DNA of 64,000 nt, taken from positions 55,662 to 119,661 of the forward strand of contig JBAQGX010000003.1 in assembly GCA_049288015.1 (NCBI GenBank). Reading direction: 5' to 3'. The notes under the pieces are model-generated. The model saw only the letters and a program-made list of their open reading frames with translations. It ran no database searches and was not told the origin of the DNA. Shown here one piece after another: positions 9,971 through 64,000 of the stretch; the first letter of the stretch is position 1, and each line of letters begins with the position of its first letter. Made by a program: the position numbers and the translations under genes. This stretch comes from Candidatus Nanoarchaeia archaeon. GTDB taxonomy: Archaea; Nanobdellota; Nanobdellia; Pacearchaeales; GW2011-AR1.

Positions 9971-10049
9971 ATTCCTAAACTTGGTTATTTCCTTTTAAAG
10001 CTTATGAAATTTAGACATACTTTTAAGTAACTTTTAAAAATAAAATATC

Positions 10050-10835: not shown

Positions 10836-10857
10836 TAAAGTTATCTGTTTTCTTATT

Positions 10858-11910: not shown

Positions 11911-12123
11911 TAGAAACCATATGAGAAATGATTTAAAAACTTTCTGAATTACAAACCTTTAATATAACTCTTCTAGAACTTAAATTCATCTGTAAAATTT
12001 ATCAACTAAGATTGTCATTGCAAGGTCTAAATTTTTTGAAACATACGGATGTAAATTTGATAGCTTATTTTCCTTTTTATTCAACATATTTGGGGTTACA
12101 ATAATTGGATTATTATCTAATTC

Positions 12124-12603: not shown

Positions 12604-12680
12604 TCCTTACTCTATTTTAATTGCTTTAAAAGTTTTATTATGTGTTATTTAACAACCCTTATAAATTGATAATTTGATTA

Positions 12681-13781: not shown

Positions 13782-14620
13782 AAATAGCAATAATAGGAGC
13801 AAATGGTTTTTTAGGTAAAAAGTTGAAAGAATACTTTTCTAAAAACAATGAGGTTATATCTGCAGGAATTAATGGAATAGGGGATATAATACCCTTAGAT
13901 GCCTCTGATAAGAAAGCTGTTGAAGATTTTATTTCTAAATACAATCCAGAAGTAGTCATAGATACTGTTGCCTTATCAAGTTCAGTGGCATGCGAAAAAG
14001 ATCCAAAGCTTTGTAAAAAACTAAATTATATTTCTGCAAAGAATATCGCAGATTCTTGTAAGAAAAATAATTCTGAAATGGTCTTTATTTCATCTTCGTA
14101 TGTTTTTGATGGTAATAAGGGAAGTTACAAAGAAGATGATCCAGTTTTACCTACAAATCAATATGCAATCACTAAGATTATGGCTGAAAAGGAAGTATCA
14201 AAATTATCTAGATTTTTGATCATAAGGGTTGAAATGATGTACGGACTAGATCAAAAAAAGATTAGATTTGGGACAGGGGGATTTAATAAAGAAATTATTG
14301 AAGTAGGATATCCAAAGCAAGTAAGAAACCCGCTTTTCGTTAATGATATTCCAAAGATAATAAATGAACTAATAAATAAAAGACAAAAGGGAATTTTCCA
14401 TTTAGCTGGCCCGGACAAGATTTCATTACTAGACTTTATAATGAAATTGTCTAAATTAGAAAAAGCAGAGAAAAAGGTTAAGATTGTAGATAGTTCTAAT
14501 TGGGCCATTAAATCTCCTAAAAATTCAACATTAGATACGTCTAAAATTAATTCCTTGGATATACACACTACTCCCCTAGATCTTTCATTAAGTGAAATAA
14601 AAAAAGAAATTATTAATTAG
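13778..14620 (+). CDS. RmlD-like NAD(P)H-dependent nucleotide-sugar 4-ketoreductase (SDR)
   Basis: 280 aa. It has the N-terminal glycine-rich loop MKIAIIGANGFLGK and a YAITK (YxxxK) catalytic motif. It overlaps the upstream GT gene. Confidence 0.65.
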   Translation: MKIAIIGANGFLGKKLKEYFSKNNEVISAGINGIGDIIPLDASDKKAVEDFISKYNPEVVIDTVALSSSVACEKDPKLCKKLNYISAKNIADSCKKNNSEMVFISSSYVFDGNKGSYKEDDPVLPTNQYAITKIMAEKEVSKLSRFLIIRVEMMYGLDQKKIRFGTGGFNKEIIEVGYPKQVRNPLFVNDIPKIINELINKRQKGIFHLAGPDKISLLDFIMKLSKLEKAEKKVKIVDSSNWAIKSPKNSTLDTSKINSLDIHTTPLDLSLSEIKKEIIN

Positions 14621-15881: not shown

Positions 15882-16020
15882 CTATTATTTGCTCGTAAAT
15901 TTAACTGCAAGCCAATTTTATTGGGAATTTTCCCTTTTTAATGATTTCTGTATGTCTATACTTTGAAGAATTGTTCTTCATAATCTTTTTAAATAATGGA
16001 CGCAACCTATCAACCAGAAG

Positions 16021-17133
16021 ATGAAACATCTAAAAGTATTTATCAATCCAGGGATCCACCCTCAGTTTAGAGAGATAATTGATTTTCCACCAGAAGATGT
16101 AGAATATGTTTATGATCCTATAGTTGGAGATCACAATAATGAATTAACTAGGAGAAAGAGAGAAGTTATTTCTTTTGTACAGAGATATCTCCAAGTTCCT
16201 AGGATGGCAAAAATAGAGAATGAGGATAAATTTGATCTTATCCATTCCACGAGAGGAATTCTAATAAGAAATAAGAAACCATGGGTTATTGACTTAGAAT
16301 CTGGTGCTGCCTTTTCCGGTTTGGAATGGACAACATTAAAGAAACCCAGAATGAGAAGACTGATAAGAAAATATCTTTCCTCTCCTTATTGTAAAAAAAT
16401 AATGCCCCAAAGCGAAGCGGCTAGGAAAACTCTGCTTGAAAATGTTGACTGTTTTGGTTTTGAAGATAAAATAGAGACAGTTTATTTGGCTTATCATACA
16501 ACTAAACTAGAAAGAAAAAAATCAGATAAAGTTAGATTATCTTTTATCGGAAGAGGATTCTTCGAAAAAGGAGGTAATGATGTGCAAGAGGCGTTTAAGA
16601 TATTAGATAAGAAATATCCTGGTAAGCTTCAATTAAAAGTCAAATGTAATGTTCCAGAAGACCACAAATTGGATATGAACAATGTGATTTATTTGCCAAA
16701 AATAGATGATCCTTTAGAATTTTATAAAGAAATATTTGGAGATTGCGATATTTATGTACAACCAACCACTGTGGATAGCTTTGGTGTTACTATATTAGAA
16801 GCAATGTCAACAGGACTACCCATAGTTTGTACAGATGATTTTACTCTGCCAGAATTAGTAGAAGACGGCCATAATGGGTTTTTGGTGAAAAGTCCTGTTC
16901 ATTGGTATCCTTATGGTATAAAAGGGGAATGGAAAGAATATACAAAAAAAGCAGAAGAGGAACATCCAGAGACTGTTCAAGAATTAGTTGAAAAAATTTC
17001 CCTGCTTATAGAAAATCCAAAATTAAGAGAAAAAATGGGAAAAAATAGTTTTGATATCGTTGAATCTGGGAAATTTTCGATAAAAGAAAGGAACAAAAAA
17101 TTAAGAAAAATTTATGATGAAGCTCTTAGGTAA
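16021..17133 (+). CDS. glycosyltransferase family 4
   Basis: 370 aa. The GT4 C-terminal motif is present (FGVTILEAMSTGLPIVCTDDFTLPELVEDGHNGFLV). Confidence 0.75.
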   Translation: MKHLKVFINPGIHPQFREIIDFPPEDVEYVYDPIVGDHNNELTRRKREVISFVQRYLQVPRMAKIENEDKFDLIHSTRGILIRNKKPWVIDLESGAAFSGLEWTTLKKPRMRRLIRKYLSSPYCKKIMPQSEAARKTLLENVDCFGFEDKIETVYLAYHTTKLERKKSDKVRLSFIGRGFFEKGGNDVQEAFKILDKKYPGKLQLKVKCNVPEDHKLDMNNVIYLPKIDDPLEFYKEIFGDCDIYVQPTTVDSFGVTILEAMSTGLPIVCTDDFTLPELVEDGHNGFLVKSPVHWYPYGIKGEWKEYTKKAEEEHPETVQELVEKISLLIENPKLREKMGKNSFDIVESGKFSIKERNKKLRKIYDEALR

Positions 17134-18050
17134 TTAATAAATTTTTTAATCCCTTCTTCGGGGCTCATTGGTTCTATTCCCAATATTTCCCTCATTAGCT
17201 TCGTATCTGCTTCAAGATTTTCAACATAATTGGCTTCCTTTGGAATAAAAATTGGTTCTAAATTAGTATTGAAATCATCTTTTATAGTTTTTAACAATTG
17301 TCTGAATGATTTAGATTTTCCAGTTCCAACATTGATTATACCTGTATACTCAACCTCTGCAGATCTTACAATCATTTTAACTACATCTTCTATATAAACA
17401 AAATCACGGGTTTGATTTCCATCCCCCCATATTTCTGGGGCCTTTCCATTCATATAATCTTTTATGAATAAGTAAAGTACACTTCCAAAATCTTTCTTTC
17501 TTTCTTCACCAGGCCCATATCCAGCAAAAATTCTTAGACCAACCGATTTCACAAAATCAGAATAAGAACTTGCAAGGCCTTCACAAGCCATTTTGCCTGC
17601 AGCATATAAATTTCGTGGTTTAATATAAATATTTTCTCTGTGAGGCATCTCATTTCCTGCATAATTGCTTCCGGAAGTAGGATATACCAATTTCTTTGTT
17701 TTGTTTTGTTTTGCAAATTCCAGTGCTTCATACAAACCAAAGATAGTTTCGCTTAAGCATTTTTCTGGAGTTTTTTTGAATAGTGTTATGGATGATGGTG
17801 CAGCAAAATGGAAAATATAGTCTATATCTTTTGGAACTTTAGCCCATGATTCATGTTTGGATACATCTCCCTCGATTATATTTATTTTTTTTAAAAAATC
17901 CAACTTGTCTTTAAATTTCTCATAATCTGTGTAAGAAAAATTATCAATTGAATAGACAATAGCTCCTCTCGAAAGTAACTCTTTTGTAATGTTTGATCCT
18001 ATAAATCCACTTGCTCCATTAACCAAAACTTTTTTGTCTTTCCAATCCAT
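17112..18050 (-). CDS. NAD-dependent nucleotide-sugar epimerase/dehydratase (extended SDR)
   Basis: 312 aa. It has the NGASGFIGSN Rossmann loop and a YAAGK catalytic motif. Its 3' end overlaps the convergent GT gene. Confidence 0.75.
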   Translation of the reverse strand: MDWKDKKVLVNGASGFIGSNITKELLSRGAIVYSIDNFSYTDYEKFKDKLDFLKKINIIEGDVSKHESWAKVPKDIDYIFHFAAPSSITLFKKTPEKCLSETIFGLYEALEFAKQNKTKKLVYPTSGSNYAGNEMPHRENIYIKPRNLYAAGKMACEGLASSYSDFVKSVGLRIFAGYGPGEERKKDFGSVLYLFIKDYMNGKAPEIWGDGNQTRDFVYIEDVVKMIVRSAEVEYTGIINVGTGKSKSFRQLLKTIKDDFNTNLEPIFIPKEANYVENLEADTKLMREILGIEPMSPEEGIKKFINYLRASS

Positions 18051-18099
18051 GGAATTTGGAAAGACTAGTTATTTTTAAGTCTTATGTATCTTAAACACA

Positions 18100-19206
18100 C
18101 TATTTTAATATTTCTAAAATTTTCTTGCTTACTCCACTTTCTCCGTATGGGTTTTTAAAATTTTTAATTTCAACTTTGTTATTTTCTATATCTTCAATAA
18201 TTTTCTTAGCATAGTCTATATCAAATTTTATGAGAAAATTTATTCCGCTTTCAATGCCTTCTTGTCTTTCAGTTCTTTCTCTAAGAATTAAGCAAGGTTT
18301 TCTAAATACTAAACTTTCTTCTTGAATGCTTCCCCCATCCGTAATTAAATACTTGCTATTGGCTAATAAGAAAATAAACTCAAAATAATCAATGAGTGGA
18401 GTAATTTTGATATTTTTCATCTCTTCGATTTCTTTCATCAAGCCATATTTCTCCAAATATTGTCTGGTATTATCATGAAGAGGCCATATTCCTTTTATTT
18501 TTACATTCTTTATGACTTCGACAATACTAATCATCCTTTTCTTATTTACTAAGTTCTCATGTCTATGAATATTTATAAGAACATAATCTTCATCAAGTTT
18601 TTTATACTTTTTTTTAGCTTTATTATATGTAATCTGTGCAGATTCTATAATGGTATTTCCAACATTTACTATTTGCCCTTTCTTTCTTTCTTTTATTAGA
18701 TTGTTTGCAGAAAAATCTGAAACTGCTAGTAGTATATCCGAGTTTCTATCACATATTTTTCGGGAAATTTCTTCGGGAAATGGTTCCCATATGCTACCAC
18801 TTCTTAATCCAGCTTCCAAGTGAACACTTTTCCAAGATTTATTATGATTTAATAATCTGCTGGAAGCTATTGAAGCTGCTGCAGTGCTCATAGTATCTCC
18901 ATGATAAATAACATAACTTGGCTTTAGTTCTCTTATTTTTCTCCTAATTCTAAAAATAGTTTTGATAAACCAAAATAAAGAGCTACTGTTAACTTTTGAC
19001 CAAAATTTTGTACTTTTTTCTGGTTCTATACTAAGAGTAAAATCTGGTCGTTTTATTCCAAATATACTACATGCTTCTCCGAGAGGATGCTGACCTGTAT
19101 GAATAAACCAATATTCTCTCTTCTGTTTTTGTAATTCGAGCATTAAAGGCATACATTTAATCAGTTCTGCTTTAGTGCCTAATATGAATGTTATTTTGTT
19201 TTCCAT
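18100..19206 (-). CDS. wecB: UDP-N-acetylglucosamine 2-epimerase (non-hydrolysing)
   Basis: The HLEAGLRSGS motif is present and the size fits WecB. I moved the start to MENKITFILGTK; the ORF track starts 12 codons earlier at 19242. Confidence 0.8.
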   Translation of the reverse strand: MENKITFILGTKAELIKCMPLMLELQKQKREYWFIHTGQHPLGEACSIFGIKRPDFTLSIEPEKSTKFWSKVNSSSLFWFIKTIFRIRRKIRELKPSYVIYHGDTMSTAAASIASSRLLNHNKSWKSVHLEAGLRSGSIWEPFPEEISRKICDRNSDILLAVSDFSANNLIKERKKGQIVNVGNTIIESAQITYNKAKKKYKKLDEDYVLINIHRHENLVNKKRMISIVEVIKNVKIKGIWPLHDNTRQYLEKYGLMKEIEEMKNIKITPLIDYFEFIFLLANSKYLITDGGSIQEESLVFRKPCLILRERTERQEGIESGINFLIKFDIDYAKKIIEDIENNKVEIKNFKNPYGESGVSKKILEILK

Positions 19207-19213
19207 ATTATTT

Positions 19214-20212
19214 TTATAAAAGATAAGTAAAAACCAGTACAATGATTATTATTAACAACTGGAAGCAATTTATCAAATTTACAACATCATTTTCATAAAC
19301 TTTATGGCTCGGCTTTATTTTTTTCAAAATTTTTATAGATAAATGTTCTAATCCATAAATTTTGTCATATGCAAGATCTAAACTTCCGTCGGGATTTGGC
19401 TTTCCGAAACTATATTTCTTTAGTTTTCCTCTTGCTTTCAAGATTGTTTCAATTATGTATGGTATAAAGAATAATATAGTAATAACTTCCAGATTTCCCA
19501 ATATAGCAATTGCAGCAATCATCATACCAATAGAGTAAGTCATCACATCTCCTGGAAAGACTTTTGCCGGATTTTTATTATAAATATAGAATGCAACTAG
19601 TGATGCTACCATTATCAAAGAAATCAGACTAAGCCAAGTATTTCCACTTAGATATGTTGCCAGCGCAAGTGCGGAAAGAATTAATATTCCTTGCCTTGCT
19701 TCAAGACTATTATAACCAGCCAAAAAATTATATGTTGTGGTTGCTCCGACAACTCCAATCGGAATTATTATTAGAGGATATAATATGCCTAAGCTGATTC
19801 CCATAACAACAGAGTTTCCTGCATTTATTACCATTAAAGGAATTGCGGAGAATAACACTAAAATTAATCTAGATCGAATGGACATCCCGCCCTTTTGCCA
19901 TCCAAATAAGTCATCAACTAAACCAATTCCAGCTACCAAGAAAAGTGAACTTATTATTGCAAATATCTGAATTGTATCTTCTGATGATTTAAAATAAAAT
20001 GTTTGTATTGCAATGTATAAAAAAATACCAATAAGTGTTGCAAGTACAGCAACAATTCCCCCCGAACCTGCAACATTTTTTTCTCTTTTTGGCTTGTTCA
20101 TATCTTCCCAAACCAAGCCGATTTCCTTTGCTTTTCTTATCCAGAAGGGCATAACAATTAAAGTAACAAAAAAACTTACTAAGACTGTCCCCAAAAGCCA
20201 AGGATTTACCAT
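19214..20212 (-). CDS. aglH: GT4-family (MraY/WecA/AglH-like) dolichyl-phosphate GlcNAc-1-phosphate transferase
   Basis: 332 aa with about 10 TM helices. The GLVDDLFG motif is characteristic of polyprenyl-phosphate HexNAc-1-P transferases. Confidence 0.75.
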   Translation of the reverse strand: MVNPWLLGTVLVSFFVTLIVMPFWIRKAKEIGLVWEDMNKPKREKNVAGSGGIVAVLATLIGIFLYIAIQTFYFKSSEDTIQIFAIISSLFLVAGIGLVDDLFGWQKGGMSIRSRLILVLFSAIPLMVINAGNSVVMGISLGILYPLIIIPIGVVGATTTYNFLAGYNSLEARQGILILSALALATYLSGNTWLSLISLIMVASLVAFYIYNKNPAKVFPGDVMTYSIGMMIAAIAILGNLEVITILFFIPYIIETILKARGKLKKYSFGKPNPDGSLDLAYDKIYGLEHLSIKILKKIKPSHKVYENDVVNLINCFQLLIIIIVLVFTYLL

Positions 20213-49229: not shown

Positions 49230-50972
49230 ATGAAATACAAATATTTTAGTATTTTGGCATTAAGTTTAGTCTCGTTTATACTACTAGTCTCTTCAGCAAG
49301 CGCTTTAACAGTATCTACAAATTCACTTTCAGCATTTACAAATCCTGGAGTTTCACAGAACTTATCCGTGTATAATTCACAGCAAGATGTAAATTTTAAT
49401 ACAAATTTTAGTATTGCAAGCCATTTGACTGATTCAAACGGCAATAATTATGACTTTTTAATAAATCCTACAGGCTCTGTTAATAATGTTTCTTCATCCG
49501 GACAAGCAAGTTATAATATAAGTTTAAATCCAAGTATTAGTAGTGGCAGTTTCGTATATGGTAATACATATTCTGAAACCGCACAATTTAATGCAATCAA
49601 CTCTTCGAATTCTTCTATACAGAGCAGCATACCCGTAAATTTAACTTATGTAAAATCTTTTTGCCAGAGTGGGGATTTGAATGATTCAAATATTCAAATG
49701 AATGTTTATGTAACAAATACCGGAAGCGGAACGTCTTCTAGTTCTACAAATTGGAATCCTCTTGATACAATTCAGGTTCAGGTTCAACTTTATAATTATA
49801 ATTCTAACTTCAATTTGAACAATGTAGTATTCAACATCGGTTTATTTCAACAAGGTACAAATAATAACATAATAAATGAAATGAATTGGCAAAGTGGAGG
49901 TAGTAATTCTGTACAAATTGGGGGAATAAGTAGCAATTCAAATGGTCAGTATACATTTACATTTAAGGTTGATCCATCAATATTGTCTAATAATAACGGG
50001 CAGACTAGTTATATTTTAATGGTAGAAGCATACGGAAACCAATTTTGCGTAGATCACTCTACTAGTTTAAGCAGTTATGGGGGATCAATATATTATACAA
50101 ATATTGGCATACAATCCCCAGACTATAACCAAGCTGTTGTTGTTGATATAGGTTCATTACCTCTATCGACGCAAGTATCATGTGGACAACAAGTTACTCT
50201 TACACCAAATATCTATAACTTGGGCTATAACGAAAATTCTTATTCCAAAGGTCAGGTTTTTGTAACAATGTCAATCCCTCAGTTAGGGATTAATGAGAAT
50301 CAAACATTATACGGAGACTTAAATTCGGGAAGCAGTGTACAAGCACCTTTTACATTTGATGTCCCCATAAATGCAGGCCAAACTACATACAATGTATATT
50401 TCAGGACATATTACGGATATAATAGTCAGTATAGTGAACCCTACTTCGGAGATTATCAATATGTTTCTCAGAATACATTTAATACGTTACTAAGTGTTCA
50501 AGGAAATTGTGTTTACGCAACTGCAGCTACAACGCAAATTACTGCACAACTTGAGTCTGGAGGTAAGGCGGGTAGTCCATTAGTTATAAAATCAACAATA
50601 ACTAACACAGGAAACACAACGGTAAGTTATAATTTTGGATTGGAAGAGTATTCATCTTGGGCCTCAGTCTCGGACATCTCTCCTCTTAATATAACTCTTA
50701 CCCCGGGTCAATCACAGGATATTACCGCAAATCTTAGTGTGAATAGTGATGCGAGTGGTGACAAATCATTCTATCTTGATGCTTACTCAAATGGATATCT
50801 AATAACAAAACAGCCTCTTTCAATCTCAATAACTCCTCAATTCAGTTTAGCATCAATAACGGGTGGTGCTATCTCAGGAGATAATTGGTATTTATGGGGA
50901 ATAGGGCTGCTTAATGTTATTCTTATACTATCAATAATTATTATTCTGGTAAAAGTAGGAAAAAAGAAATAG
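49230..50972 (+). CDS. secreted N/S/T-rich surface protein with C-terminal TM anchor and KKK tail
   Basis: 580 aa. A signal peptide (LVSSASA) opens the protein, dozens of N-x-S/T sequons follow, and the C-terminus is ...WYLWGIGLLNVILILSIIIILVKVGKKK. Confidence 0.6.
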   Translation: MKYKYFSILALSLVSFILLVSSASALTVSTNSLSAFTNPGVSQNLSVYNSQQDVNFNTNFSIASHLTDSNGNNYDFLINPTGSVNNVSSSGQASYNISLNPSISSGSFVYGNTYSETAQFNAINSSNSSIQSSIPVNLTYVKSFCQSGDLNDSNIQMNVYVTNTGSGTSSSSTNWNPLDTIQVQVQLYNYNSNFNLNNVVFNIGLFQQGTNNNIINEMNWQSGGSNSVQIGGISSNSNGQYTFTFKVDPSILSNNNGQTSYILMVEAYGNQFCVDHSTSLSSYGGSIYYTNIGIQSPDYNQAVVVDIGSLPLSTQVSCGQQVTLTPNIYNLGYNENSYSKGQVFVTMSIPQLGINENQTLYGDLNSGSSVQAPFTFDVPINAGQTTYNVYFRTYYGYNSQYSEPYFGDYQYVSQNTFNTLLSVQGNCVYATAATTQITAQLESGGKAGSPLVIKSTITNTGNTTVSYNFGLEEYSSWASVSDISPLNITLTPGQSQDITANLSVNSDASGDKSFYLDAYSNGYLITKQPLSISITPQFSLASITGGAISGDNWYLWGIGLLNVILILSIIIILVKVGKKK

Positions 50973-52814: not shown

Positions 52815-53549
52815 TTAAGAAACATTAAAAGCCTGATTCAGAGTTGAGAAAGTTTCAGTCATATATCTTTCGGTTGCTGCCAGAATTTGACAATTGTTTA
52901 CATTAATATTATAACATCCAGGAGCTATTTCTTGAATATTTGTCTCATTTGAAGGCACTATATTTAAGTATACATACCTTATCTGAGGATCACAAGTCAT
53001 ATTAGAACTCTTCGTTACATTTATCCCCAAAGCATTTTGATATAAATTAACAAGGTTTGCAACTCCAAGTATACCATCACCATTACAATTAAGCTCACTT
53101 AAATTACTGCTTGAATTTATTACTAAATTTTGTCTTACATACAGACTTCCATTGAAAGGGACTTCTTTATCCAACATTCTTGGATCATAATTAAGATAGA
53201 TATTATATTCTGCATTAGATCCGTTAGACAAAGTCATAGGTATCTTTGTATCATAAAGAGTTTGCCCCTGCTCAATTGTAGTATCCACAATATATCTCAC
53301 CCCATCAACAGTAAAACTTTTTGAAGTATTTGATAGCAAAAGAATGAAGATGAATACTCCAACGAGTAATCCTATTATTACCAAAGTTATTAGAAGTATC
53401 TTACTTTCAGAAGCAATCTGTTTTTGACTAGGATGTTCCTTTTTATCTTCAACTTCTTCTGCTTTTTCGATATTATCTTCTATACTTTCTTCAATAGCTT
53501 CAATTTCTTTTTCTTTCTTATTACTCTTTGTTTTCTTGTTGGTTTTCAT
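52815..53549 (-). CDS. type-II (N-terminally anchored) surface protein, Asn/Cys-rich ectodomain
   Basis: 244 aa. A charged K/E N-terminus is followed by a single TM (LLITLVIIGLLVGVFIFILL) and an ectodomain with sequons and paired Cys. Confidence 0.5.
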   Translation of the reverse strand: MKTNKKTKSNKKEKEIEAIEESIEDNIEKAEEVEDKKEHPSQKQIASESKILLITLVIIGLLVGVFIFILLLSNTSKSFTVDGVRYIVDTTIEQGQTLYDTKIPMTLSNGSNAEYNIYLNYDPRMLDKEVPFNGSLYVRQNLVINSSSNLSELNCNGDGILGVANLVNLYQNALGINVTKSSNMTCDPQIRYVYLNIVPSNETNIQEIAPGCYNINVNNCQILAATERYMTETFSTLNQAFNVS

Positions 53550-54145
53550 TGTCTAATTCCAAATATTTTAAATAAAACATTGTCAACAGTCTTTATTAAA
53601 TCTTGTCCTTGTCCGTAAATATAAATACAGTTTTGTACTTGCATCACGCTCTGCTGTCCGCTGTTAATTATTATAAAATTGTTACTACAGTTTATATTCT
53701 GAGCAATTGTTTGGTTACACTGCATCCCGGCAGGGCAGGCATCTATTATTGAAGTGTTAAAAGAATATAGGTTTGATCTGACCTCAGACTCTGCATTCGA
53801 ATCGTCAGAATAAATATACAAAATTTTATTCGAAAAATCACCTAAGGTTTTTGTTATATTTGTTAAGTCCTGAGAGGAGATCTGTGAAGGATTGTAAGTA
53901 AAAACTAAGGTATTACCATTGTAATTTGAATACCAAAAACCGTTTTGGTTTAAAAAATTGATTCCGTTATAACTTATAGATTGTGTCGAATTAATGTTTG
54001 ATACATTATTATTTCCGGTAAGGTAATTCTGAAATGCATAGCCTAGGACACTTATTAGCATGACTCCTATTAGAATTATGCTTATTAAAAACTGATTTCT
54101 CTTCTTTTTTTTATCTTTTTCATACTTTGAAATAATCTTTCGCAT
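53546..54145 (-). CDS. type-II (N-terminally anchored) surface protein, Asn/Gln-rich ectodomain
   Basis: 199 aa. A basic N-terminus is followed by a single TM and an ectodomain with Cys pairs. It overlaps the downstream gene by 4 nt. Confidence 0.5.
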   Translation of the reverse strand: MRKIISKYEKDKKKKRNQFLISIILIGVMLISVLGYAFQNYLTGNNNVSNINSTQSISYNGINFLNQNGFWYSNYNGNTLVFTYNPSQISSQDLTNITKTLGDFSNKILYIYSDDSNAESEVRSNLYSFNTSIIDACPAGMQCNQTIAQNINCSNNFIIINSGQQSVMQVQNCIYIYGQGQDLIKTVDNVLFKIFGIRQ

Positions 54146-54276: not shown

Positions 54277-57102
54277 TTAGTGACTTGCTACCTGCAATTG
54301 AGCACTTGTTGAAGTTGTTCCAATGTACTTGTTACCCATAGTCATATCTGGCTTCTGAGTAGTCAAGTAAGTTGCAGCATTTTGTGTATCTGGGGCATCG
54401 TATCCGGCAACTAGCAATGCGACATATTGTGGCGCATTTAATACAGAGTTGTTGTATGTTTGAATCAAGAATTGTCCTGATCCTACACCGGTTGCTTGTG
54501 TCCAAGCACTTCCACAGTAAGCTCCTCCTACTAATGTAGCAGCAGCTGAATTAATACAGCTACCTCCAACAACAATTAAGTTGTCGTTCATTACAGAGGA
54601 AACTTGTGAATCTTTTACAAGTACTTGTCCTAACTGCAAAGCTCCTGATGTTGATGAAGAACCTGATGTAACACTTGAACCTAGACTACCAATGTACAAC
54701 TGCTCATATACCTGGTTTAGAGGATATGTAATTGTTGCAAATGGCGATGACGAACTGTCTGCGTTCTTTGTTACCTGAGTTCCCCAATAATCAACCCATA
54801 CATTCTGGTTTGAATCACTATACAAAGTTGTGGTATAATTTGTGGTAGATGTTGAGTAAACATTGCTTACTCCTAATGTACCTCCACTTGTACTTGCAAT
54901 ACCTGCAAGGGTAGTTACAAATGTATTATAGTTAGAGTTTACATCTCTACCTTCGATTAAGTTCACAGCGGTTGTATTTACTATAGTTGATGCAGTTCCA
55001 GGCTCTATTAAGTAAACATCTGTTCTATTAGTAGAGTTTGAAGGATCAGCCATAAATTCATATGTTAAGTTTGAAGCTTTGCTGCTTCCAACAGTAACAA
55101 ACACTGTTTGATTTGCAGACGCAAATGCATTACTATTGTTAGCTGAAATCCACAAATAGGCACTTCCATCAACAGTACCTGTACCACCAGTAATACTTAC
55201 TGTATAATTGGTAAGGTTCATGGCTGCAGCTCCACTAACTGTAATAGGTGTGAAAGTTACAGCTGTAACTCCTCCCCCATATGGAAGGTCTAATGTAGTT
55301 ACATTGTTTAAATTTCCATCAATATTACTTAACGTGAGGTTAAGTGGTTCATATAACTGTATTTGTCCATGATTCTGCGTAGAAATTGCAGGATATAACA
55401 AATAAGCACCTGATGAAGGAACTCCAGAATCACCTGTATATCTTATCTCTGCCCATGATGAATTTTCGAAATAAGCGGTATACGTCTTTCCATCTAATGT
55501 GAAAGTTGTATACGTTGTTCCGTTAGTTGCACCACTTAAACTAGTAATACCTTGTCCTTTAAGATTATAGGACTGTCCTGTTACTAGGTCGTAAAGCTGT
55601 ATGTAATCGCTTGTATAGTTTGTATCTGAGCTTGAAGCGTGAACAACGTTATAGACAGACTGCAACTGAATCATATGTCCTTCTAGTTGTCCAGAAGATC
55701 CAGTTCCTGTTATTACAATAGGACTCAATCCACCATTAACCGAAAGGTTAGCCATTTCATATGGATAAATTGGAGAAATGTAAGTTGCTCCTCCATATGT
55801 CAGGTTAACAGAACTGAATCTGTTGGTATCGTTGTATGCAAATGGCACACTAGCGTTGTAACCCATAAGATCAGTAAATCCTAATGTTGCAACTTGTCCG
55901 CTTGGAGTTATTGTAATAGTATCCCTTTGTGTGGTACCATTCAATGGATTACTTAATCCAGCATTAGTTATTTGGAAACTTCCGAATACAGGGTCTGTAA
56001 ACTTTTGACCTGCAAGTAAAGTGGCATTTGTAGATATCGGTGCCTCAACCTGAACAGTTATTCCTGTTAAAGCGCTCAATGTACCTGTAAAGTATACCAA
56101 TGTCCCTTGTATTGCAGTATTTGAAGTTCCAACCTGTACCGCAGATCCACTTGTCATAGTAATTTGGTTTGCTCCCAATAAAATTGTAGCTGAACCAGTT
56201 GCTGTTCCCGAACTTGGGAATACGCTTGTTGTTGCAACATTTACTCCATTAATTAATTGGGGTGTTCCTATACTTAACGTTCCAGCAACACCATCAACTG
56301 TTAATTGTACCTGAGTACTACTAACTGCATTTAATGCAATTGTATGACTTACTCCGCTTATACTTACAGTTGTACTATTTCCCTGAGCCAAATTTACGGT
56401 TTGTGCAGAAGAGTATAGTAATAAACTACTTGATCCAGCGGCCATAGTACCTACAACATATTGGTTTCCAAATAGTGTTATAGGAATTCCCTGACTGCTA
56501 GAAGCTGTAAAGTTTATAGGCTGGCTGAATGCTATCGTTGCATTATACAAATAGTTCGAGAAATTGTTTACACCTATGCTAAGTCCCACGGATGGGTTGT
56601 AAGCACTTGTTGGCATTTTAGAAAACTCAACTTTTCCTGAGTTATCTGCACTACCTGATGAAGTTGTACTGATTGTACCAGGCCCAAGAGTTATAGTCTG
56701 GGTGGTCGTTGCAGCGACATTACCTCCGAAGGTAGTAGTTCCAAGAAGTGTTGGAAAATCTGAACTTGTATAAGCTGTTTTAGCAGTAGTCAATGTAGTG
56801 TTTAGCCATATCTTATTGGATCCTCCCTGATCTAAAGCTTCAACTGCTCCGTTTGTTGTTGTAACTACTCCGCCAGATGTTCCAGTTAGATATGATTGCA
56901 AGTTGGTTTGTATATTTCCTGCTTGTACCACATCTAAAGGAGAAACTCCAGCACCAGTACCATAAACAATAGCAACGTTACTTGCTGCTCCGTTCTGCAC
57001 GAAAGGTGCGGGGAAAGGAGTTGCTGCAGCGAAAGCTGTAGTCATACCGGCCAATAAAACACTTGCTCCGATTGCTGCGATTTTTTTAAAGTTAAATCTC
57101 AT
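54277..57102 (-). CDS. S-layer-like major surface glycoprotein
   Basis: 941 aa with a signal peptide (LLAGMTTAFAAA). Composition is T/S/G/A/N-rich beta-type with many N-x-T/S sequons. The GC content is locally elevated and the codon-biased frame is clean. A strong SD and a terminator flank the gene. Confidence 0.65.
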   Translation of the reverse strand: MRFNFKKIAAIGASVLLAGMTTAFAAATPFPAPFVQNGAASNVAIVYGTGAGVSPLDVVQAGNIQTNLQSYLTGTSGGVVTTTNGAVEALDQGGSNKIWLNTTLTTAKTAYTSSDFPTLLGTTTFGGNVAATTTQTITLGPGTISTTSSGSADNSGKVEFSKMPTSAYNPSVGLSIGVNNFSNYLYNATIAFSQPINFTASSSQGIPITLFGNQYVVGTMAAGSSSLLLYSSAQTVNLAQGNSTTVSISGVSHTIALNAVSSTQVQLTVDGVAGTLSIGTPQLINGVNVATTSVFPSSGTATGSATILLGANQITMTSGSAVQVGTSNTAIQGTLVYFTGTLSALTGITVQVEAPISTNATLLAGQKFTDPVFGSFQITNAGLSNPLNGTTQRDTITITPSGQVATLGFTDLMGYNASVPFAYNDTNRFSSVNLTYGGATYISPIYPYEMANLSVNGGLSPIVITGTGSSGQLEGHMIQLQSVYNVVHASSSDTNYTSDYIQLYDLVTGQSYNLKGQGITSLSGATNGTTYTTFTLDGKTYTAYFENSSWAEIRYTGDSGVPSSGAYLLYPAISTQNHGQIQLYEPLNLTLSNIDGNLNNVTTLDLPYGGGVTAVTFTPITVSGAAAMNLTNYTVSITGGTGTVDGSAYLWISANNSNAFASANQTVFVTVGSSKASNLTYEFMADPSNSTNRTDVYLIEPGTASTIVNTTAVNLIEGRDVNSNYNTFVTTLAGIASTSGGTLGVSNVYSTSTTNYTTTLYSDSNQNVWVDYWGTQVTKNADSSSSPFATITYPLNQVYEQLYIGSLGSSVTSGSSSTSGALQLGQVLVKDSQVSSVMNDNLIVVGGSCINSAAATLVGGAYCGSAWTQATGVGSGQFLIQTYNNSVLNAPQYVALLVAGYDAPDTQNAATYLTTQKPDMTMGNKYIGTTSTSAQLQVASH

Positions 57103-57521: not shown

Positions 57522-57881
57522 ATGGCAAAAGAAAAGTCAAAAATTAAAGAGATTTTCCTGACTTATAATAAAGGAGCCTTTTCTTTATTTAAGAAGCCAG
57601 GATACTCAAGAAAAGATTATAATTTCGAGGATTTATCCCAATTAAGGCATCTACTAAGCAATGAAAAAGCAAGGATCTTAGAGGTAATAAAGTCCCAGAA
57701 TCCTTCATCAATATATGAACTTGCAAAGAAACTAGGAAGAAATTTTAAAGCAGTAAATGATGATGTTAAGCTACTTAAGAAGTTTGGATTCATAGACTTA
57801 AAAGAAGAATTAACCAAAAAAAGAAAAAGGTTTAGACCTATAATTGTAGTGGATACATTAGATATACATTTTACATTGTAG
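57522..57881 (+). CDS. winged-helix (ArsR/MarR-like HTH) transcriptional regulator
   Basis: 119 aa. An HTH-like segment (KARILEVIKSQNPSSIYELAKKLGRNFKAVNDDVKLLKKFGFI) is present. The gene is convergent with the pilin genes. Confidence 0.5.
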   Translation: MAKEKSKIKEIFLTYNKGAFSLFKKPGYSRKDYNFEDLSQLRHLLSNEKARILEVIKSQNPSSIYELAKKLGRNFKAVNDDVKLLKKFGFIDLKEELTKKRKRFRPIIVVDTLDIHFTL

Positions 57882-57884
57882 TGC

Positions 57885-58379
57885 CTAAGAATAGGCACTG
57901 AATATAATACGCACAGAAGTTCCTCCCTTTGAAAGAGGCTGCGAGTTTCCTTGCGAATTGCTAGTTATATTACCTTCTTTTACCGAAAAGATTTCTCCTG
58001 TACTTGAACTAATATTCATAATATACCCCTTTATTGAGCTTCCCTGCCCTACAATCCAAGTTTGATTTAAAATTCCCCTTAGAGTTGAATTTAGTATTTG
58101 ACAACTATTTATAGAAGGGTTATTTGTCCGATCTAAACAATTAGTTCCTGAACCGCACATAAAGATTAGATCTCTTACCGAAATATATCCATAATAATTT
58201 TGACATTGTGTGCTTGTTTGTAGAGTTGAAGTTACAAAACTCTCGGCCTCATAGCTTTGGACAGTTTGATTTCCGGAACTATTCAGAAAAAATCCTAAAA
58301 ACACAAGCAAAATTATAGATACGATTATTATAATCAGTGCAAATCCAATCATTTCTTCCTGAGCTCTTTTATTTTTCAT
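57885..58379 (-). CDS. prepilin-like protein with class III signal peptide
   Basis: The start was chosen at MKNKRAQEEMIGFALIIIIVSIIL, forming an ATGA overlap with the upstream stop. The ORF track starts at 58418. Confidence 0.55.
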   Translation of the reverse strand: MKNKRAQEEMIGFALIIIIVSIILLVFLGFFLNSSGNQTVQSYEAESFVTSTLQTSTQCQNYYGYISVRDLIFMCGSGTNCLDRTNNPSINSCQILNSTLRGILNQTWIVGQGSSIKGYIMNISSSTGEIFSVKEGNITSNSQGNSQPLSKGGTSVRIIFSAYS

Positions 58380-58897
58380 GTTCCTTGGTATGTTACAATT
58401 ATTTTTGCAAGATTGCATTCTATAGATCCATTAATTGAATATCCACATAAAGAAACAATGTTTGAAGTTCCTGTTCCGTTGTTTGTTGGTATTAATGTTA
58501 TTTTATTACAATTTGGAAAATTTGAGATAGTACACTCGACATTATCTGTTTGCGGATATACGGTTCTTATTTGAATACCTTGAACTCCCCAGAAAGTTCC
58601 GTTGCCATATATTTTCAAATTATTCTCCAAACTTATAACTTTGTCCACATCAATGCACGAGCTCATTCCAGTTCCAAAATAGTTACTAAAACTATCCCCA
58701 CATGAAAACTCGGGAGAATCTGAAATCTTTGAAACTAAAAGTTGAGCATTATCTTGCTGTAAGACTGATGCTTTTTGTTTTAGCCCATTTACTGAAGTAA
58801 CCAGGACAAACATTCCCGCCAGGACAAAGAATAATGTTACCGCAATAAGCATAAAAGTCATCTGTTGGATTTTCAATTGACCTTTTTTTGTTTTCAT
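58376..58897 (-). CDS. prepilin-like protein with class III signal peptide
   Basis: The start was chosen at MKTKKGQLKIQQMTFMLIAVTLFFVL. The ORF-track start at 58933 would overlap the upstream gene by 35 nt. Confidence 0.55.
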   Translation of the reverse strand: MKTKKGQLKIQQMTFMLIAVTLFFVLAGMFVLVTSVNGLKQKASVLQQDNAQLLVSKISDSPEFSCGDSFSNYFGTGMSSCIDVDKVISLENNLKIYGNGTFWGVQGIQIRTVYPQTDNVECTISNFPNCNKITLIPTNNGTGTSNIVSLCGYSINGSIECNLAKIIVTYQGT

Positions 58898-58898
58898 T

Positions 58899-59825
58899 TT
58901 ACCAAAGTTTGCATGTTGAAGCATCATTTTCATTTTGAAGTTGACTTGTAAGAGGTATTAGGTTGATCATGTCTTGAGAATTTTGGAATGAGTTTAACAT
59001 CGAGTTTAATTGCATAAGATCTGGATTAGGAGTACATGACTGGATTGCATTAGATTTTTCAATATACAATGAGGAGAGCTCTGCATCTCTTTCCATTAAT
59101 CTTTTTAATTGACATTCATAAATACTGCTATCTGAGAAAATAGCGCCATACATTAAGGCGTCACCATAAAAGTTTAATGTGCTCCCATTTTTTGTTACCT
59201 CTTCTCTAGTGTAATCAACATTGATATCGCAATTGCTTCCAGAGAAGCAAACTTTTATGCTATTCTGGGGACAGTTTGTTGTATCATTGGTTAATCTGAT
59301 ATTGCCTTCGTTAAGATTTGACAATTCTTCCTGTATACTCTGAGGAGAATTAACAAAACAATAATCTACAGAAGATGAGGTCATATATATTAAATCAGAA
59401 ACTTCAAAAGGAAAACTAAATGGCTTTGAAAAAAGATAAAATTGTCTTCCGTCAGAAACATTATCCGAAAAAATGTATTTATCTCCAAATGTTACTCCGT
59501 TAGTTTGAGGAGACCATTTCCCTAAGCTTAACTGTGATAAGCTAAGTATTTGCAATCCAAAAGTCCCACTAAAATTTTCACATTGATTGTATATTCTTGT
59601 TTCCACTGGCAAACTTATTGAAGTAATCTGTCCTGATTGGAAACTTGTTTGAAGAGGATTAAGAAGGGCCGCAATTTCACTTCCTGCCTCAGCAGTAGTT
59701 GAAGATTGTCCAATATTCATTATTCTTGTTACCGTAAAAATTGCAATTGCAAGAATAATAGCACCTGCAATAATTCCAAACAGCCAGGCAAATGAAATTT
59801 CTAAAAATCCTCTTTTATTCTTCAT
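58899..59825 (-). CDS. prepilin-like protein with class III signal peptide (larger, 308 aa)
   Basis: It starts MKNKRGFLEISFAWLFGIIAGAIILAIAIF, with a KRG cleavage-site context and a hydrophobic N-terminal helix. Confidence 0.6.
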   Translation of the reverse strand: MKNKRGFLEISFAWLFGIIAGAIILAIAIFTVTRIMNIGQSSTTAEAGSEIAALLNPLQTSFQSGQITSISLPVETRIYNQCENFSGTFGLQILSLSQLSLGKWSPQTNGVTFGDKYIFSDNVSDGRQFYLFSKPFSFPFEVSDLIYMTSSSVDYCFVNSPQSIQEELSNLNEGNIRLTNDTTNCPQNSIKVCFSGSNCDINVDYTREEVTKNGSTLNFYGDALMYGAIFSDSSIYECQLKRLMERDAELSSLYIEKSNAIQSCTPNPDLMQLNSMLNSFQNSQDMINLIPLTSQLQNENDASTCKLW

Positions 59826-59828
59826 TTT

Positions 59829-60260
59829 CTAATGTACTGTTACTAATGTGTCTCCAAAATTTTTCTGAAGAATTAGATTCACATTGCCATTCACTACAGG
59901 GAAGCATGAATTACTACTTGAAGTTATTGCGCTTATATTAAGATTTTCTATGTTTCCTCCGGGAGCACTATATCCGTTAGCACCATTGAGAACAACATCG
60001 TCTCCATTCGTATTAACAAAACAAACTTCTTTTATTGAACTAGGAAGACTGTAAGATTTTGTTTGGCTTGACTGATCAGAATTCCATACTACGTTGACAT
60101 CTTTCTGAAGATTGTCCGAGAATTGGCTTATTTTTACGCTATCTTGCAAACCCAAGAACTTTTGTATCACAAAAAAAGCAAATCCTATAAAGACAATTAT
60201 GAGCACTATGGAGAAAATCATACCAAACGAAAGCTGGATCTGCCCCCTTTTGTTTCTCAT
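59829..60260 (-). CDS. prepilin-like protein with class III signal peptide
   Basis: It starts MRNKRGQIQLSFGMIFSIVLIIVF, resembling euryarchaeal type IV pilins of the RGQ-ISLEF type. Confidence 0.6.
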   Translation of the reverse strand: MRNKRGQIQLSFGMIFSIVLIIVFIGFAFFVIQKFLGLQDSVKISQFSDNLQKDVNVVWNSDQSSQTKSYSLPSSIKEVCFVNTNGDDVVLNGANGYSAPGGNIENLNISAITSSSNSCFPVVNGNVNLILQKNFGDTLVTVH

Positions 60261-60292
60261 TCAATAAATAAATTAAATAAGCTTATAAATTT

Positions 60293-62740
60293 TTAGAAAT
60301 TAATTGAAGAAGGATTTAATATAATACTACATGCATTCTGAGGCTGATTTCCAAATTGGTCTTCACACTTTATATAATAAGTCTGATCAGAAACCCATCC
60401 AGTGCTATGAGTTATATTGTCAAGAGTTGTCAATGGAATTCCTTGACTGAATGGATATGTACAATCGACAATATCATAAACACAGTTCCCTGCTCTATCT
60501 GTTTCTATATTTAATGTGTTTGTTCCTGAGTCATGATAAGCTCTTACAACATTTGGAGGAGTCGTAATTGACTGTACATTAAAGTTTATACTAGAATAAT
60601 CCGCGTCTCCTGCAAAGTCGACACACTTTAAATAGTAAGTATAATTGCCAGGAGTAAGCCATAAATCCTGTGTGCTCTGATAAGAAGTAGTATTTGAGAA
60701 CTGCATATAGGTACTCTCATCAGGATTAGTGCTATAATAACATGTGGAACTTCCGGAATTATATCCTCCTGAAGTCTGAAGGTTCAGTGTAACATCAATA
60801 TTTGTCGTTGATCCTGTAATCGTTGTCTGATTAGGGCTTGCGGAAGTAATAGACAACTGACTGCTTGATCCTGATAAGACAAAAGGATAAGACTGCTGAT
60901 TTATATTGCCATTAGTGTCGTTACATCTGAAGTAGAAATTACTTGTAGCTCCATTAACTATTCCAGTAAGATTTGCAATACAAGAGAATAATCCTAATGG
61001 AGTTGGAGCAGCACGACAGGACATATTGTTTGGCATACTTTGATAGCTTTGGTCTGTGTGACTCCATCTACATCCGGTAACTTGCTTATTTATGAAAACA
61101 GAAACATCGGTTGAAAATGTTCCAAAGGATATTGGAGTTCCTGTTGCAGGCGATGTAGATACAATACTTGGGGGAGTTACATCTGGAGTCTGATCTGCAT
61201 TGAATTGTATAACATATGCTCCTGTATCAGAAGCATTGTTTACATTGTTACATCTTATGTAATAATCTGTCTGCCCACTTTGTTGTACACTTAAACTAGT
61301 TCCAGTTTGATTCTTGAAAACGGGAATTTCAAAGGTGTGATTATATGTTCCATCAGGATTCCTTATACCCCATGTACCTTCATTTCCATTTATTCCGCCG
61401 TCCGTTCCAATCAAGAAACCTGTTGCAGTCATGTTAGCATAAGAATTTCCCCTTATAGGACTAACCATACACTGGGCTGCTTGATCAGTCTGTATCCCAA
61501 GAGATAGTATAGTATAAGGAGATATGTTTGGAGTTATCAAAACTCCCGTATCTCCAGGATATGAAGGAGCAGGCATAGGCTTGTAGTTAAGGGTATTTCC
61601 ATTAGATAAAGATAATACATTTCCCAAGAAAGTTATAACAGGTTGTGGTGCATTTTGATTTGTTGCAATACAAATTGGTTGCCCATTTTGTCCTGCATTT
61701 ATTAGTTCACATGCTGTTCCTAAACTTGCACATTCATATGCTGTACAAGTTAGTCCATTCTTTCCACATTTGCTGCAATCACTTCCACCATAAGGTGCTT
61801 GCCAAGGAACACATTGAATGACAACAGCATCATCTTTTGTATCTTGTGAAAATATTAAATAAGCTGCGACTACAATTATAGCTGTTGTTCCTCCCACTAT
61901 CCATCCTAAAGGTCCAGCAGCAACTGTACCTATTCCTGCAGGGAATATTTCTGCAGCAAGAACTCCAGTGAATGTTCCTGCAGTAAAGGCTAATTGCGCC
62001 CCTGTAAGAATAGAATCCCATGTGCTTCCCGGAGCTGCATTAACCCAAAGCTTGATGAGTGAAATTACTCCCAAAACTGCTACCGCTGCACCGGCTGCCA
62101 CACCAATTGCTATGGTGAGTGCCCAAACTCCTCCCCAAAGAGTTTGCCCAGTAAATAAAGTTGTTAGTGGTGCTGCTGCAGTTGCTGTTCCTGCAGGTAA
62201 TCCTGATGCAGACCCAGAGAGATAGGCACTAGCGGGCAATCCATTTGTTGTTGCTGGGGGTACATAGGGGGTTGTAGCTGCTGCAGGTAATCCCGTTGTT
62301 TCACTTCCAGACAATGATGTGGCTCCTGGTGATGATACAGGTGTACGGGCCGGAGCTCCTCCCGGGAGATATCTAGATCCAGATGAAGCAAGGGATCCCA
62401 CCTGCGATATTTCAGATAATACACTAGATATCTGTGTGGATAATCCTGCTGTAGATGAAGGAGGAGGGCTTGATGGTGCTGCACTAGGAGGAGTCGTTGC
62501 TGCAGGAGGTGAAGGTAAAGTATTTTCTGTAGTAGTACAATATCCAGTACCAGCACTAACTATATAGCAAAATTCACCCGTTGAACATCCTGAACTATCG
62601 TGACAAGCATTGCCTACGACAGCAGAAACTACACCAACTTCGCTTCCGATAGCATAAGAAACTGAAACAATTCCAATTAGTAATATTAAAATCTGGCTCA
62701 AGGCCATTCCCACCGATTTCTTATAAAATATTTTTTTCAT
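60293..62740 (-). CDS. large polytopic Cys-rich surface protein with mucin-like P/S/T/A linker
   Basis: 815 aa. The layout is an N-terminal anchor, a small Cys knot, an approximately 150-aa P/S/T/A low-complexity linker, 3 TM helices and a roughly 500-aa Cys/Asn-rich C-terminal ectodomain. Confidence 0.55.
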   Translation of the reverse strand: MKKIFYKKSVGMALSQILILLIGIVSVSYAIGSEVGVVSAVVGNACHDSSGCSTGEFCYIVSAGTGYCTTTENTLPSPPAATTPPSAAPSSPPPSSTAGLSTQISSVLSEISQVGSLASSGSRYLPGGAPARTPVSSPGATSLSGSETTGLPAAATTPYVPPATTNGLPASAYLSGSASGLPAGTATAAAPLTTLFTGQTLWGGVWALTIAIGVAAGAAVAVLGVISLIKLWVNAAPGSTWDSILTGAQLAFTAGTFTGVLAAEIFPAGIGTVAAGPLGWIVGGTTAIIVVAAYLIFSQDTKDDAVVIQCVPWQAPYGGSDCSKCGKNGLTCTAYECASLGTACELINAGQNGQPICIATNQNAPQPVITFLGNVLSLSNGNTLNYKPMPAPSYPGDTGVLITPNISPYTILSLGIQTDQAAQCMVSPIRGNSYANMTATGFLIGTDGGINGNEGTWGIRNPDGTYNHTFEIPVFKNQTGTSLSVQQSGQTDYYIRCNNVNNASDTGAYVIQFNADQTPDVTPPSIVSTSPATGTPISFGTFSTDVSVFINKQVTGCRWSHTDQSYQSMPNNMSCRAAPTPLGLFSCIANLTGIVNGATSNFYFRCNDTNGNINQQSYPFVLSGSSSQLSITSASPNQTTITGSTTNIDVTLNLQTSGGYNSGSSTCYYSTNPDESTYMQFSNTTSYQSTQDLWLTPGNYTYYLKCVDFAGDADYSSINFNVQSITTPPNVVRAYHDSGTNTLNIETDRAGNCVYDIVDCTYPFSQGIPLTTLDNITHSTGWVSDQTYYIKCEDQFGNQPQNACSIILNPSSINF

Positions 62741-64000
62741 TTAGCCATAAGAGGGTTTCCCCAAAAGTATTTTGAATAAATCATTCATTCCATTTGTTCC
62801 ACTAGTCCCAATATAATTCACGCTTACACCGCAATCTCCGATAGAAGAACAGATATTAGATACACTTGATGCCCATGGTTGTGATAAACTCTCACCATTA
62901 TCTAAACAAACAACATCATTTGCAGGTGAAATAGCCCAAGGAGCGTTGAATATGCTTGCTCCTTTACTTCTCGTATAATTCTCGTAACAAACCATACTCC
63001 CCATAAAACACAAATCCTTTGCACTTGGGCCTTGTATATTCAAATTGCCTGAAGAGCTTAGTAGTCCATTTACAGAAATATCAAATCCAGGAGTATACTT
63101 CGGAACACATGAAGCTCCAGGTCTTGGATCTAGTGCTCTTGATGTATCATCTTGTCTTGGAACTAAGATATCATTTACACTGTCATAAACATAAGGTAAT
63201 CCCGTTGAATTATCTTTTAAGATGCTATACCCAATAATCCATTGACAATCTCTTGTAGTATTATCCAAACAAGACTTACTGCTGTTTTGATAATAACAAT
63301 CTTGCCATCTGTTCAAAGTAAGATAAGAACTGAAGTACCCATTTGAAGTTTCATTTTGGACACATACTTTCTGTCTGGCATCATATGTTTCTGTTGTGAT
63401 TTCTCCATTCTGACATATGAATAAAGTATCAACATTTCCAGGTAAATCTAAAGATTTGTTAAAAGTCACTGTATCAGGAAGGGTGTAACTTACAGAACCA
63501 GTACCAAAACCATTATTCCCGCTTCCGCTTTGTCCTGGCGTCGAAGATGAACTTGAACCAGGATCTCCTCCGAACACAAGATTCCCGTTAGACTCTGTTC
63601 CACACCAACTTTCTCCATTAACGGGATATTGAAGAATTTGATTTGACTGTCTTTGAGTTCCGTAAGTTTGAACAAATTGTGGGACAAAGGTCCCGCTCTT
63701 GCAATTTAAATCTCTGCATATGTAATCTCCAATTGCAGGCTTACTACTATCTATTGTTGGATCATATTTCATGCATGTGCTTCCAGCAAGATAATTACAA
63801 TTACCATTACTTGCAGATTCTACATCTCCAGCATTATCGCTATCTGGAGCTGATGCTACTAAATAATCCCAATAACTTTCATTAGTATACTGCTTCTGAT
63901 CATATATGTTAGCAGTGTTTCCGCAGCTATCGATATAGAATATCTGATCTGAGGCAGATGAACAAGTCGTTTCTTGCGTCTTTACACAATTTGTTCCTAG
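62741..64000 (-). CDS. Cys-rich secreted protein, 5'-partial (N-terminus outside window)
   Basis: The frame is open to the window edge; the ORF-track M at 63772 is internal. It has more than 25 Cys, sequons and a G/S-rich linker. Its stop abuts the start of the 815-aa gene. Confidence 0.5.
   Translation of the reverse strand, partial: LGTNCVKTQETTCSSASDQIFYIDSCGNTANIYDQKQYTNESYWDYLVASAPDSDNAGDVESASNGNCNYLAGSTCMKYDPTIDSSKPAIGDYICRDLNCKSGTFVPQFVQTYGTQRQSNQILQYPVNGESWCGTESNGNLVFGGDPGSSSSSTPGQSGSGNNGFGTGSVSYTLPDTVTFNKSLDLPGNVDTLFICQNGEITTETYDARQKVCVQNETSNGYFSSYLTLNRWQDCYYQNSSKSCLDNTTRDCQWIIGYSILKDNSTGLPYVYDSVNDILVPRQDDTSRALDPRPGASCVPKYTPGFDISVNGLLSSSGNLNIQGPSAKDLCFMGSMVCYENYTRSKGASIFNAPWAISPANDVVCLDNGESLSQPWASSVSNICSSIGDCGVSVNYIGTSGTNGMNDLFKILLGKPSYG

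Follow-up and report, generated by a model that had tools for sequence, protein, structure and literature searches.

Pilin-like genes flank two cysteine-rich surface proteins in a conserved operon of Pacearchaeales and their relatives

How do archaea of the Woesearchaeales and Pacearchaeales hold on to other cells? To our knowledge, these orders are the most diverse DPANN groups; we know of no cultured member and of no account of their mode of attachment. The question is raised by a locus in a 64,000-nucleotide (nt) stretch of DNA from a Candidatus Nanoarchaeia archaeon of the Pacearchaeales (GenBank assembly GCA_049288015.1, contig JBAQGX010000003.1, positions 55,662 to 119,661 of the forward strand), hereafter called the window, to which all positions given below refer. 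An earlier note on this DNA had pointed to an operon of two large Cys-rich surface proteins next to an array of pilin genes and had suggested a fiber with a tip adhesin or an apparatus for host attachment. Our analysis places the two proteins, A and B, in a conserved seven-gene operon together with five pilin-like proteins. The reading that we tentatively favor, with a probability of roughly 0.42, is that this operon encodes a type IV filament-related surface complex displaying A and B. The earlier note's view of the system as undescribed held: no description of the cluster or of its families was found in the searchable literature.

Organization and conservation of the operon

The genes for B, four pilin-like proteins (pil1 to pil4), and the C-terminal part of A are encoded on the minus strand of the window. 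A sister contig from the same population, which differs from the window by one single nucleotide polymorphism in B and an indel in pil2, extended the locus as the earlier note had proposed; it supplied the full upstream gene for A and revealed that A is preceded by another pilin-like gene, the fifth (pilU), with the PCNA and primase genes further upstream. Together, the window and the sister contig give a seven-gene unit, pilU-A-B-pil1-pil2-pil3-pil4, in which A and B lie inside the pilin-like set. The earlier placement of the pair directly upstream of a pilin array is accurate for pil1 to pil4, which lie downstream on the same strand, and incomplete on the other side, where pilU precedes A, so that the pair is flanked.

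The junctions confirm a tight same-strand operon, as first described, with an abutting stop and start between the two Cys-rich proteins. A ends with a stop codon at 62741-62743, immediately before the ATG of B at 62740 (a gap of 0 nt); 32 nt separate the B stop codon from the pil1 start, and the next junctions measure 3, 1, and -4 nt when start codons are matched to those of orthologs. The 32-nt gap (60261-60292) contains the sequence TTTATAA ~27 nt before the pil1 ATG, which may be an internal archaeal promoter giving pil1 to pil4 a leaderless transcript of their own. In the sister contig (L001 12883-13691), the indel splits pil2 into open reading frames (ORFs) of 144 and 123+ residues, reflecting either an assembly error or variation in the population; the window copy is intact at 308 residues.

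We examined ~15 nonredundant related loci from Nanoarchaeota, Pacearchaeota, and Woesearchaeota (25 to 78% identity). Their common gene order is PCNA; a first triad consisting of pilU and an A-B fusion; a second triad of pilU, A, and B; pil1 to pil4; a convergent helix-turn-helix (HTH) gene of the HVO_A0114 family; an S-layer gene with an S_layer_C domain; and genes for two membrane proteins. The synteny on which the earlier proposal depended was present, the pilin-like genes being co-conserved with A and B: pil1 to pil4 follow B in 11 of the 13 loci that can be read downstream, and A has a pilin-like gene before it wherever the upstream side is visible. The invariant module is the pilU-A-B triad, which occurs in one to three diverged copies and duplicates as a block, with pilU always accompanying A-B; pil1 to pil4 are single.

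In many of these genomes (loci L003, L007, L008, L010, L011, L013, L014, L015, and L016), A and B are fused in one ORF of ~1,200 to 1,390 residues (about 1,300). The two proteins appear to act together because they are so often fused, which argues that they form one functional unit. Two loci (L003 9363-9997 and L014 8950-9387) carry a toxin-antitoxin pair (MNT/HepT and HicAB) exactly at the junction of A and B, and this junction tolerates insertions.

Since gene order is conserved well beyond the operon (PCNA to VTT), synteny alone is weak evidence of a shared function. Indeed, gene order stays conserved into unrelated genes at either end (primase and PCNA on one, VTT and PAP2 on the other), as would be expected if these were unrelated surface proteins left adjacent merely by frozen gene order. 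We consider that explanation very unlikely, given that A-B fusions recur, the triad is duplicated as a block, starts and stops abut or overlap, and the triad persists with different flanks in L014 and L017. Because of the wide conservation of gene order, adjacency alone is not enough, and the argument rests on fusion, on duplication of the triad as a block, and on codons that abut.

Architecture of proteins A and B

Full-length A, as read from the sister contig, has 625 residues, 35 Cys, and an N-terminal signal. The earlier count of more than 25 Cys fits this complete protein and not the 419 residues in the window, which contain 19. A is exported by its Sec signal. Its structure model is confident (predicted local distance difference test [pLDDT] score of 86), and comparison of the model with solved structures and viral folds gave no match; A is a disulfide-knotted secreted protein with a fold that has no recognized relative. 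One A homolog (P0175/P0102 set) is fused to cupredoxin domains, an instance of module swapping. Pfam and NCBIfam searches gave no match for A, B, or the pilin-like proteins of the window, and PDB sequence-profile searches with A, B, and pilU were likewise negative. The structural searches of the ectodomains that the earlier note had called for returned Ig-like folds in B and no match for A.

B (23 Cys and 54 Asn in 815 residues; the database gene call starts at Met12 and has 804 residues) comprises a conserved N-terminal helix, a hypervariable region, a hydrophobic block, and a large C-terminal domain (Table 1). Across 108 family members, the N terminus is K-rich, often with KKG or KRG, and continues as [MLI]A[LI]SQI..L..G..AFSY..G....VSA. 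This sequence is compatible with either a class III-like signal whose polar residue falls near +5 or an extended Sec signal or anchor, and it is far too conserved for a mere targeting sequence. The hypervariable N-region that follows ranges from 14 to 1,050 residues across the family, and AlphaFold2 (AF2) predicts disorder over residues 35 to 204. Homologs have 0 to 42 Cys in the region of the mini-knot, mostly in even numbers, and one (again of the P0175/P0102 set) carries a LysM domain in the variable region, a further case of module swapping. The DNA of the P/S/T/A-rich linker is the GC-rich island noted previously, at a GC content of 0.51 versus ~0.33 around it; its other frames contain spurious ORFs, and a search for tandem repeats in it was negative.

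Within the hydrophobic block, the helix at residues 277 to 298 is the only clean transmembrane helix family-wide (mean hydropathy of 1.85, no charges). The first two helices (H1 and H2) are Gly/Ala-rich, amphipathic, and moderately hydrophobic, each with about one basic and one acidic residue. B is held in the membrane by its own anchor. The C-terminal domain (516 residues) contains 19 Cys, 50 Asn, and 12 N-x-S/T sequons. Its Ig-like nature is seen at the fold level; homologs match by profile, and B of the window lies below every Pfam threshold. A search with full-length B returned five relatives, a low number that we attribute to the low-complexity linker saturating the word filter. With a profile of the C-terminal domain, 63 matches and then 2,986 cluster representatives were obtained, and the family of this domain comprises at least 1,415 clusters at 50% identity (E < 1e-30). 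Among the 150 matches listed, almost all cover the full ~500-residue domain. A fusexin (Fsx1/HAP2) was also considered as a candidate and rejected, as the three-domain class II fusogen fold is lacking.

All of the parts that the earlier note had assigned to B are present (i.e., the anchor, four Cys, the linker, three helices, and the Cys/Asn-rich domain); the sidedness of its topology is doubtful. The N-region looks external on account of its even-numbered Cys knots, the LysM domain of one homolog, and the avoidance of sequons described below, and the C-terminal domain looks external because its Ig domains are disulfide paired, yet three helices between two extracellular regions give the wrong parity. 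Either one of the first two helices would be nonspanning or one of the flanking regions would be cytoplasmic.

An S-layer scaffold would also suit the Cys knob and the four Ig-like domains that immediately follow the transmembrane helix. In this housekeeping role, B would be a membrane-anchored stalk that crosses the pseudo-periplasm and keeps the S-layer in place or at a distance, as SlaB does in Sulfolobales; A and the pilin-like proteins would be structural struts, and none of them would have a role in attachment to other cells. The S-layer protein has no membrane anchor of its own, the operon adjoins its gene in nearly all loci and shares a core part of the chromosome with ribosomal, Sec, and FtsZ genes, and the B ectodomain is strongly conserved across its many clusters. 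We regard a scaffold as the main rival and a serious one, somewhat less likely than the complex that we favor. Against it, the S-layer gene forms a separate transcription unit, split off by a convergent gene; one to three diverged triads per genome would be strange if B anchored one lattice; B has a hypervariable N-region, with Cys knots and LysM; and B has neither a coiled coil nor a C-terminal anchor, unlike SlaB.

Avoidance of N-glycosylation sequons

The variable N-regions of B (81 members) contain 12 N-x-S/T sequons, versus 154±11 expected from shuffling and 139 occurrences of the mirror motif S/T-x-N; 49 of the 58 N-regions with at least five Asn have no sequon at all. The A family has 329 sequons versus 684 expected (z = -15; mirror, 546), with the strongest depletion in the N-terminal half (106 versus 272 for the mirror motif), and A-B fused forms show the same trend. 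The C-terminal domain of B stays close to expectation (487 versus 502; mirror, 423), and the cytoplasmic proteins of the window are neutral (38 versus 36.5). Sequons are enriched 1.2- to 2.6-fold in the S-layer protein, the membrane proteins p199 (1.6-fold) and p244 (2.6-fold), and pil4.

Because cytoplasmic proteins are neutral, the depletion implies exposure to external glycosylation together with selection to stay bare. This locates both A and the B N-region on the outside of the cell and marks them as likely interaction surfaces. The linker had been thought likely to be O- or N-glycosylated; the ~12-fold avoidance of sequons in the N-region that bears it contradicts N-glycosylation. Such avoidance, strong in two parts of the system, lets the faces that have to remain bare be recognized from sequence and can guide binding experiments.

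Exposed regions that are kept free of glycans would also be expected of a machine that engages a host by bridging or fusing membranes, as a woesearchaeal and pacearchaeal equivalent of the attachment organelle seen in cultivated Nanobdellota. Its proteins have not been identified there, and the organelle may occur throughout the phylum (PMC11420986). H1 and H2 of B, being Gly/Ala-rich and moderately hydrophobic, are compatible with such a machine, in which they would act on the partner membrane, as is the presence of the operon in all ~15 related loci examined of this host-dependent group. We judge this explanation decidedly unlikely.

Pilin-like proteins

The five small proteins are, from their N termini, best called pilin-like. 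pilU (278 residues), which is encoded before A in the sister contig, begins with SKRA/QVTIFIILGIII (the slash marks the end of the leader; for pil1 to pil4, see Table 1). Each of the five families has a basic leader, G/A/S, almost always Gln, and then a conserved, family-specific stretch that runs into a hydrophobic helix, and the five proteins keep a [KR]x[G/A/S]-Q motif before this helix. pilU and pil1 to pil4 all have the class III pattern (i.e., a short basic leader ending in G/A, followed by ~20 hydrophobic residues and no other transmembrane segment). Orthologs with the pilin pattern occur in 7 to 18 loci per family, with Ser also found at -1, and the mature N termini are conserved within each family. 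The +1 Gln is invariant in pilU, where the Gln after G/A/S is one of only seven invariant columns of the alignment, conserved in pil1, pil3, and pil4, and variable in pil2. EppA-processed pilins of Methanococcus have both a +1 Gln and a +5 Glu (PMC3875500), and an Epd-type type IV filament (TFF) system 1 has been reported in DPANN archaea (bioRxiv 10.64898/2026.04.22.720090). When the Pilin_N profile was compared with members of the pilU family, 1 of 16 matched (E = 0.12).

Class III signals are not confined to pilins: sugar-binding proteins of Sulfolobus use them (PMC3875500), and the operon might accordingly encode a bindosome-like assembly for nutrient capture, with binding proteins that have class III signals displayed at the surface. 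This is extremely unlikely, as none of the proteins has a solute-binding fold or profile and no ABC transporter is adjacent. For A and B themselves, a solute-binding identity, which the earlier note had named as an outcome that would undo its proposal, was rejected; there is neither a two-lobed binding-protein fold nor a solute-binding protein profile.

A proposed filament-related surface complex

In the complex that we favor, an EppA-type prepilin peptidase would process the five pilin-like proteins, which would then form a short stem or priming complex resembling a type IV filament, in the manner of minor pilins and not as a long homopolymeric fiber. pilU would couple the A-B unit to this stem, and the working surface, which touches another cell or a surface, would lie on the faces of A and of the B variable region that carry no glycans.

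Several observations weigh against this reading. The +5 Glu of Epd pilins is absent from the pilin-like proteins (pil4 has Glu at +2 and +3), and none of the five matches Pilin_N (PF07790), DUF361, or TIGR02537, with no match at E ≤ 1 for the proteins of the window. The 64-kb window and the sequence up to 10 kb from each of the ~15 loci encode no pilus ATPase, platform protein, or prepilin peptidase; in L014 and L017, the triad occurs without pil1 to pil4 downstream; and synteny extends past the operon on both sides. B cannot simply ride on a fiber, as it has a transmembrane anchor of its own, and conservation of its large domain is not what is usually seen in a host-specific adhesin. On these last two points, B is no obvious candidate for a detachable form of the tip adhesin in the earlier proposal.

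A bolder version of the favored reading is that the operon encodes protein parts of the DPANN host-contact apparatus of the two largest uncultured orders, a pilin-primed structure embedded in the envelope. Host binding would fall to a disulfide-knotted, glycan-free head, built from A together with the B variable region, and B would engage the partner membrane through its Gly/Ala-rich helices. We think this unlikely. Whatever its function, the operon occupies a core chromosomal region, keeps the same gene order in ~15 loci, and consists only of unannotated families, including one fold without a known relative; it also provides seven defined proteins as targets for metaproteomics, tomography, and multimer prediction.

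Other features of the window

The genes of the operon, the parts of B, and the neighboring envelope genes are listed in Table 1. The 941-residue protein encoded beyond the convergent HTH gene is rich in Thr, Ser, and Asn, lacks a membrane anchor, and has no Pfam match itself; it is probably the S-layer protein. p199 starts with KKKRNQ and a helix, like the pilin leaders but with Asn at -1.

Table 1. Positions of the operon genes, the parts of protein B, and adjacent envelope genes in the window
Feature	Coordinates	Strand	Remarks
Protein A, C-terminal 419 of 625 residues	62741..64000	-	Sec-secreted, disulfide-rich; N-terminal 206 residues lie past the window edge
Protein B, 815 residues	60293..62740	-	Membrane-anchored surface protein; start abuts A stop
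B residues 1-40, K-rich tail and conserved hydrophobic helix	62621..62740	-	Motif in 108 members; AF2 helix at 5-34
B residues 46-68, four-Cys mini-knot	62537..62605	-	Cys 46, 52, 58, and 68; from Cys positions
B residues 73-195, P/S/T/A-rich disordered linker, GC-rich island	62156..62524	-	Part of hypervariable N-region
B residues 202-298, three hydrophobic helices	61847..62137	-	202-233, 240-270, and 277-298 (AF2)
B residues 310-360, membrane-proximal Cys knob	61661..61813	-	Cys 322, 325, 332, 337, 344, and 357 invariant
B residues 361-815, four Ig/Fn3-like beta-sandwich domains	60296..61660	-	Conserved Cys pair in each
pil1, 143 residues, pilin-like	59829..60260	-	N terminus MRNKRG/QIQLSFGMIF...
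pil2, 308 residues, pilin-like	58899..59825	-	N terminus MKNKRG/FLEISFAWLF...
pil3, pilin-like	58376..58933	-	KKG/QLKIQQMTFM...; likely true start ATG 58897
pil4, pilin-like	57885..58418	-	KRA/QEEMIGFAL...; likely true start ATG 58379
HTH regulator, HVO_A0114 family, convergent	57522..57881	+	Same position in most loci examined
S-layer-type protein, 941 residues, separate transcription unit	54277..57102	-	Orthologs carry S_layer_C; syntenic
p199 and p244, conserved single-anchor membrane proteins	52815..54145	-	p199, 53546-54145; p244, 52815-53549; both sequon-enriched

Elsewhere in the window, positions 2978-20212 hold a long glycan-biosynthesis island with a flippase, several GT1 and GT4 transferases, a DegT aminotransferase, a GDP-mannose dehydratase, RmlD, a C-methyltransferase, a UDP-GlcNAc 2-epimerase, and an initiating GT4; the island likely supplies glycans for the sequon-rich envelope proteins. 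At 7760-9970 (minus strand), a 736-residue protein fuses a pyruvate-kinase barrel, PUA_2, and ATP-sulfurylase, beside a sulfotransferase gene (10050-10835, plus strand); the fusion could provide activated sulfate for sulfated surface glycans. A 580-residue protein (49230-50972, plus strand) with a weak NPCBM_assoc/CARDB-like match is probably a further surface protein.

Comparison with known systems

Surface proteins with Ig-like repeats (e.g., Big_13 and Y_Y_Y proteins, SiiE, and the Fn3 modules of CbhA) differ from B, which has a disulfide pair in each domain, combines an N-terminal helix, a variable region, and a hydrophobic block not described there, and lies below the Pfam thresholds in the case of the window copy. 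With the SlaA/SlaB system of Sulfolobales, the locus shares a membrane-anchored beta-sandwich stalk encoded beside an S-layer protein, but there is no sequence or specific fold match. An identity of B with a SlaB-type anchor was rejected, since its beta-sandwich domains are joined by no coiled coil or long helix after residue 300 and its anchor is N-terminal to the rod.

The Epd pili of Methanococcus maripaludis resemble the pilin-like proteins in the short basic leader ending in G/A, the +1 Gln, and the hydrophobic helix, as well as in having many pilin-like genes, some for proteins of 200 to 300 residues, that are unlinked to the ATPase (PMC3875500). They differ in the +5 Glu and the DUF361/Pilin_N match, both missing here, and have no counterpart of A and B.

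The bacterial type IV pilus operons with FimU-PilVWXE and PilY1 differ from the cluster in every component: here, the system is archaeal, has two partner proteins (one of them membrane anchored), and shows no pilin-profile match, and a PilY1-type tip adhesin was rejected because neither the C-terminal beta-propeller nor the N-terminal vWA domain is present. It is in layout that the cluster resembles these minor-pilin-plus-partner operons, with unequal pilin-like genes and a large nonpilin surface protein in one operon and the core machinery encoded elsewhere.

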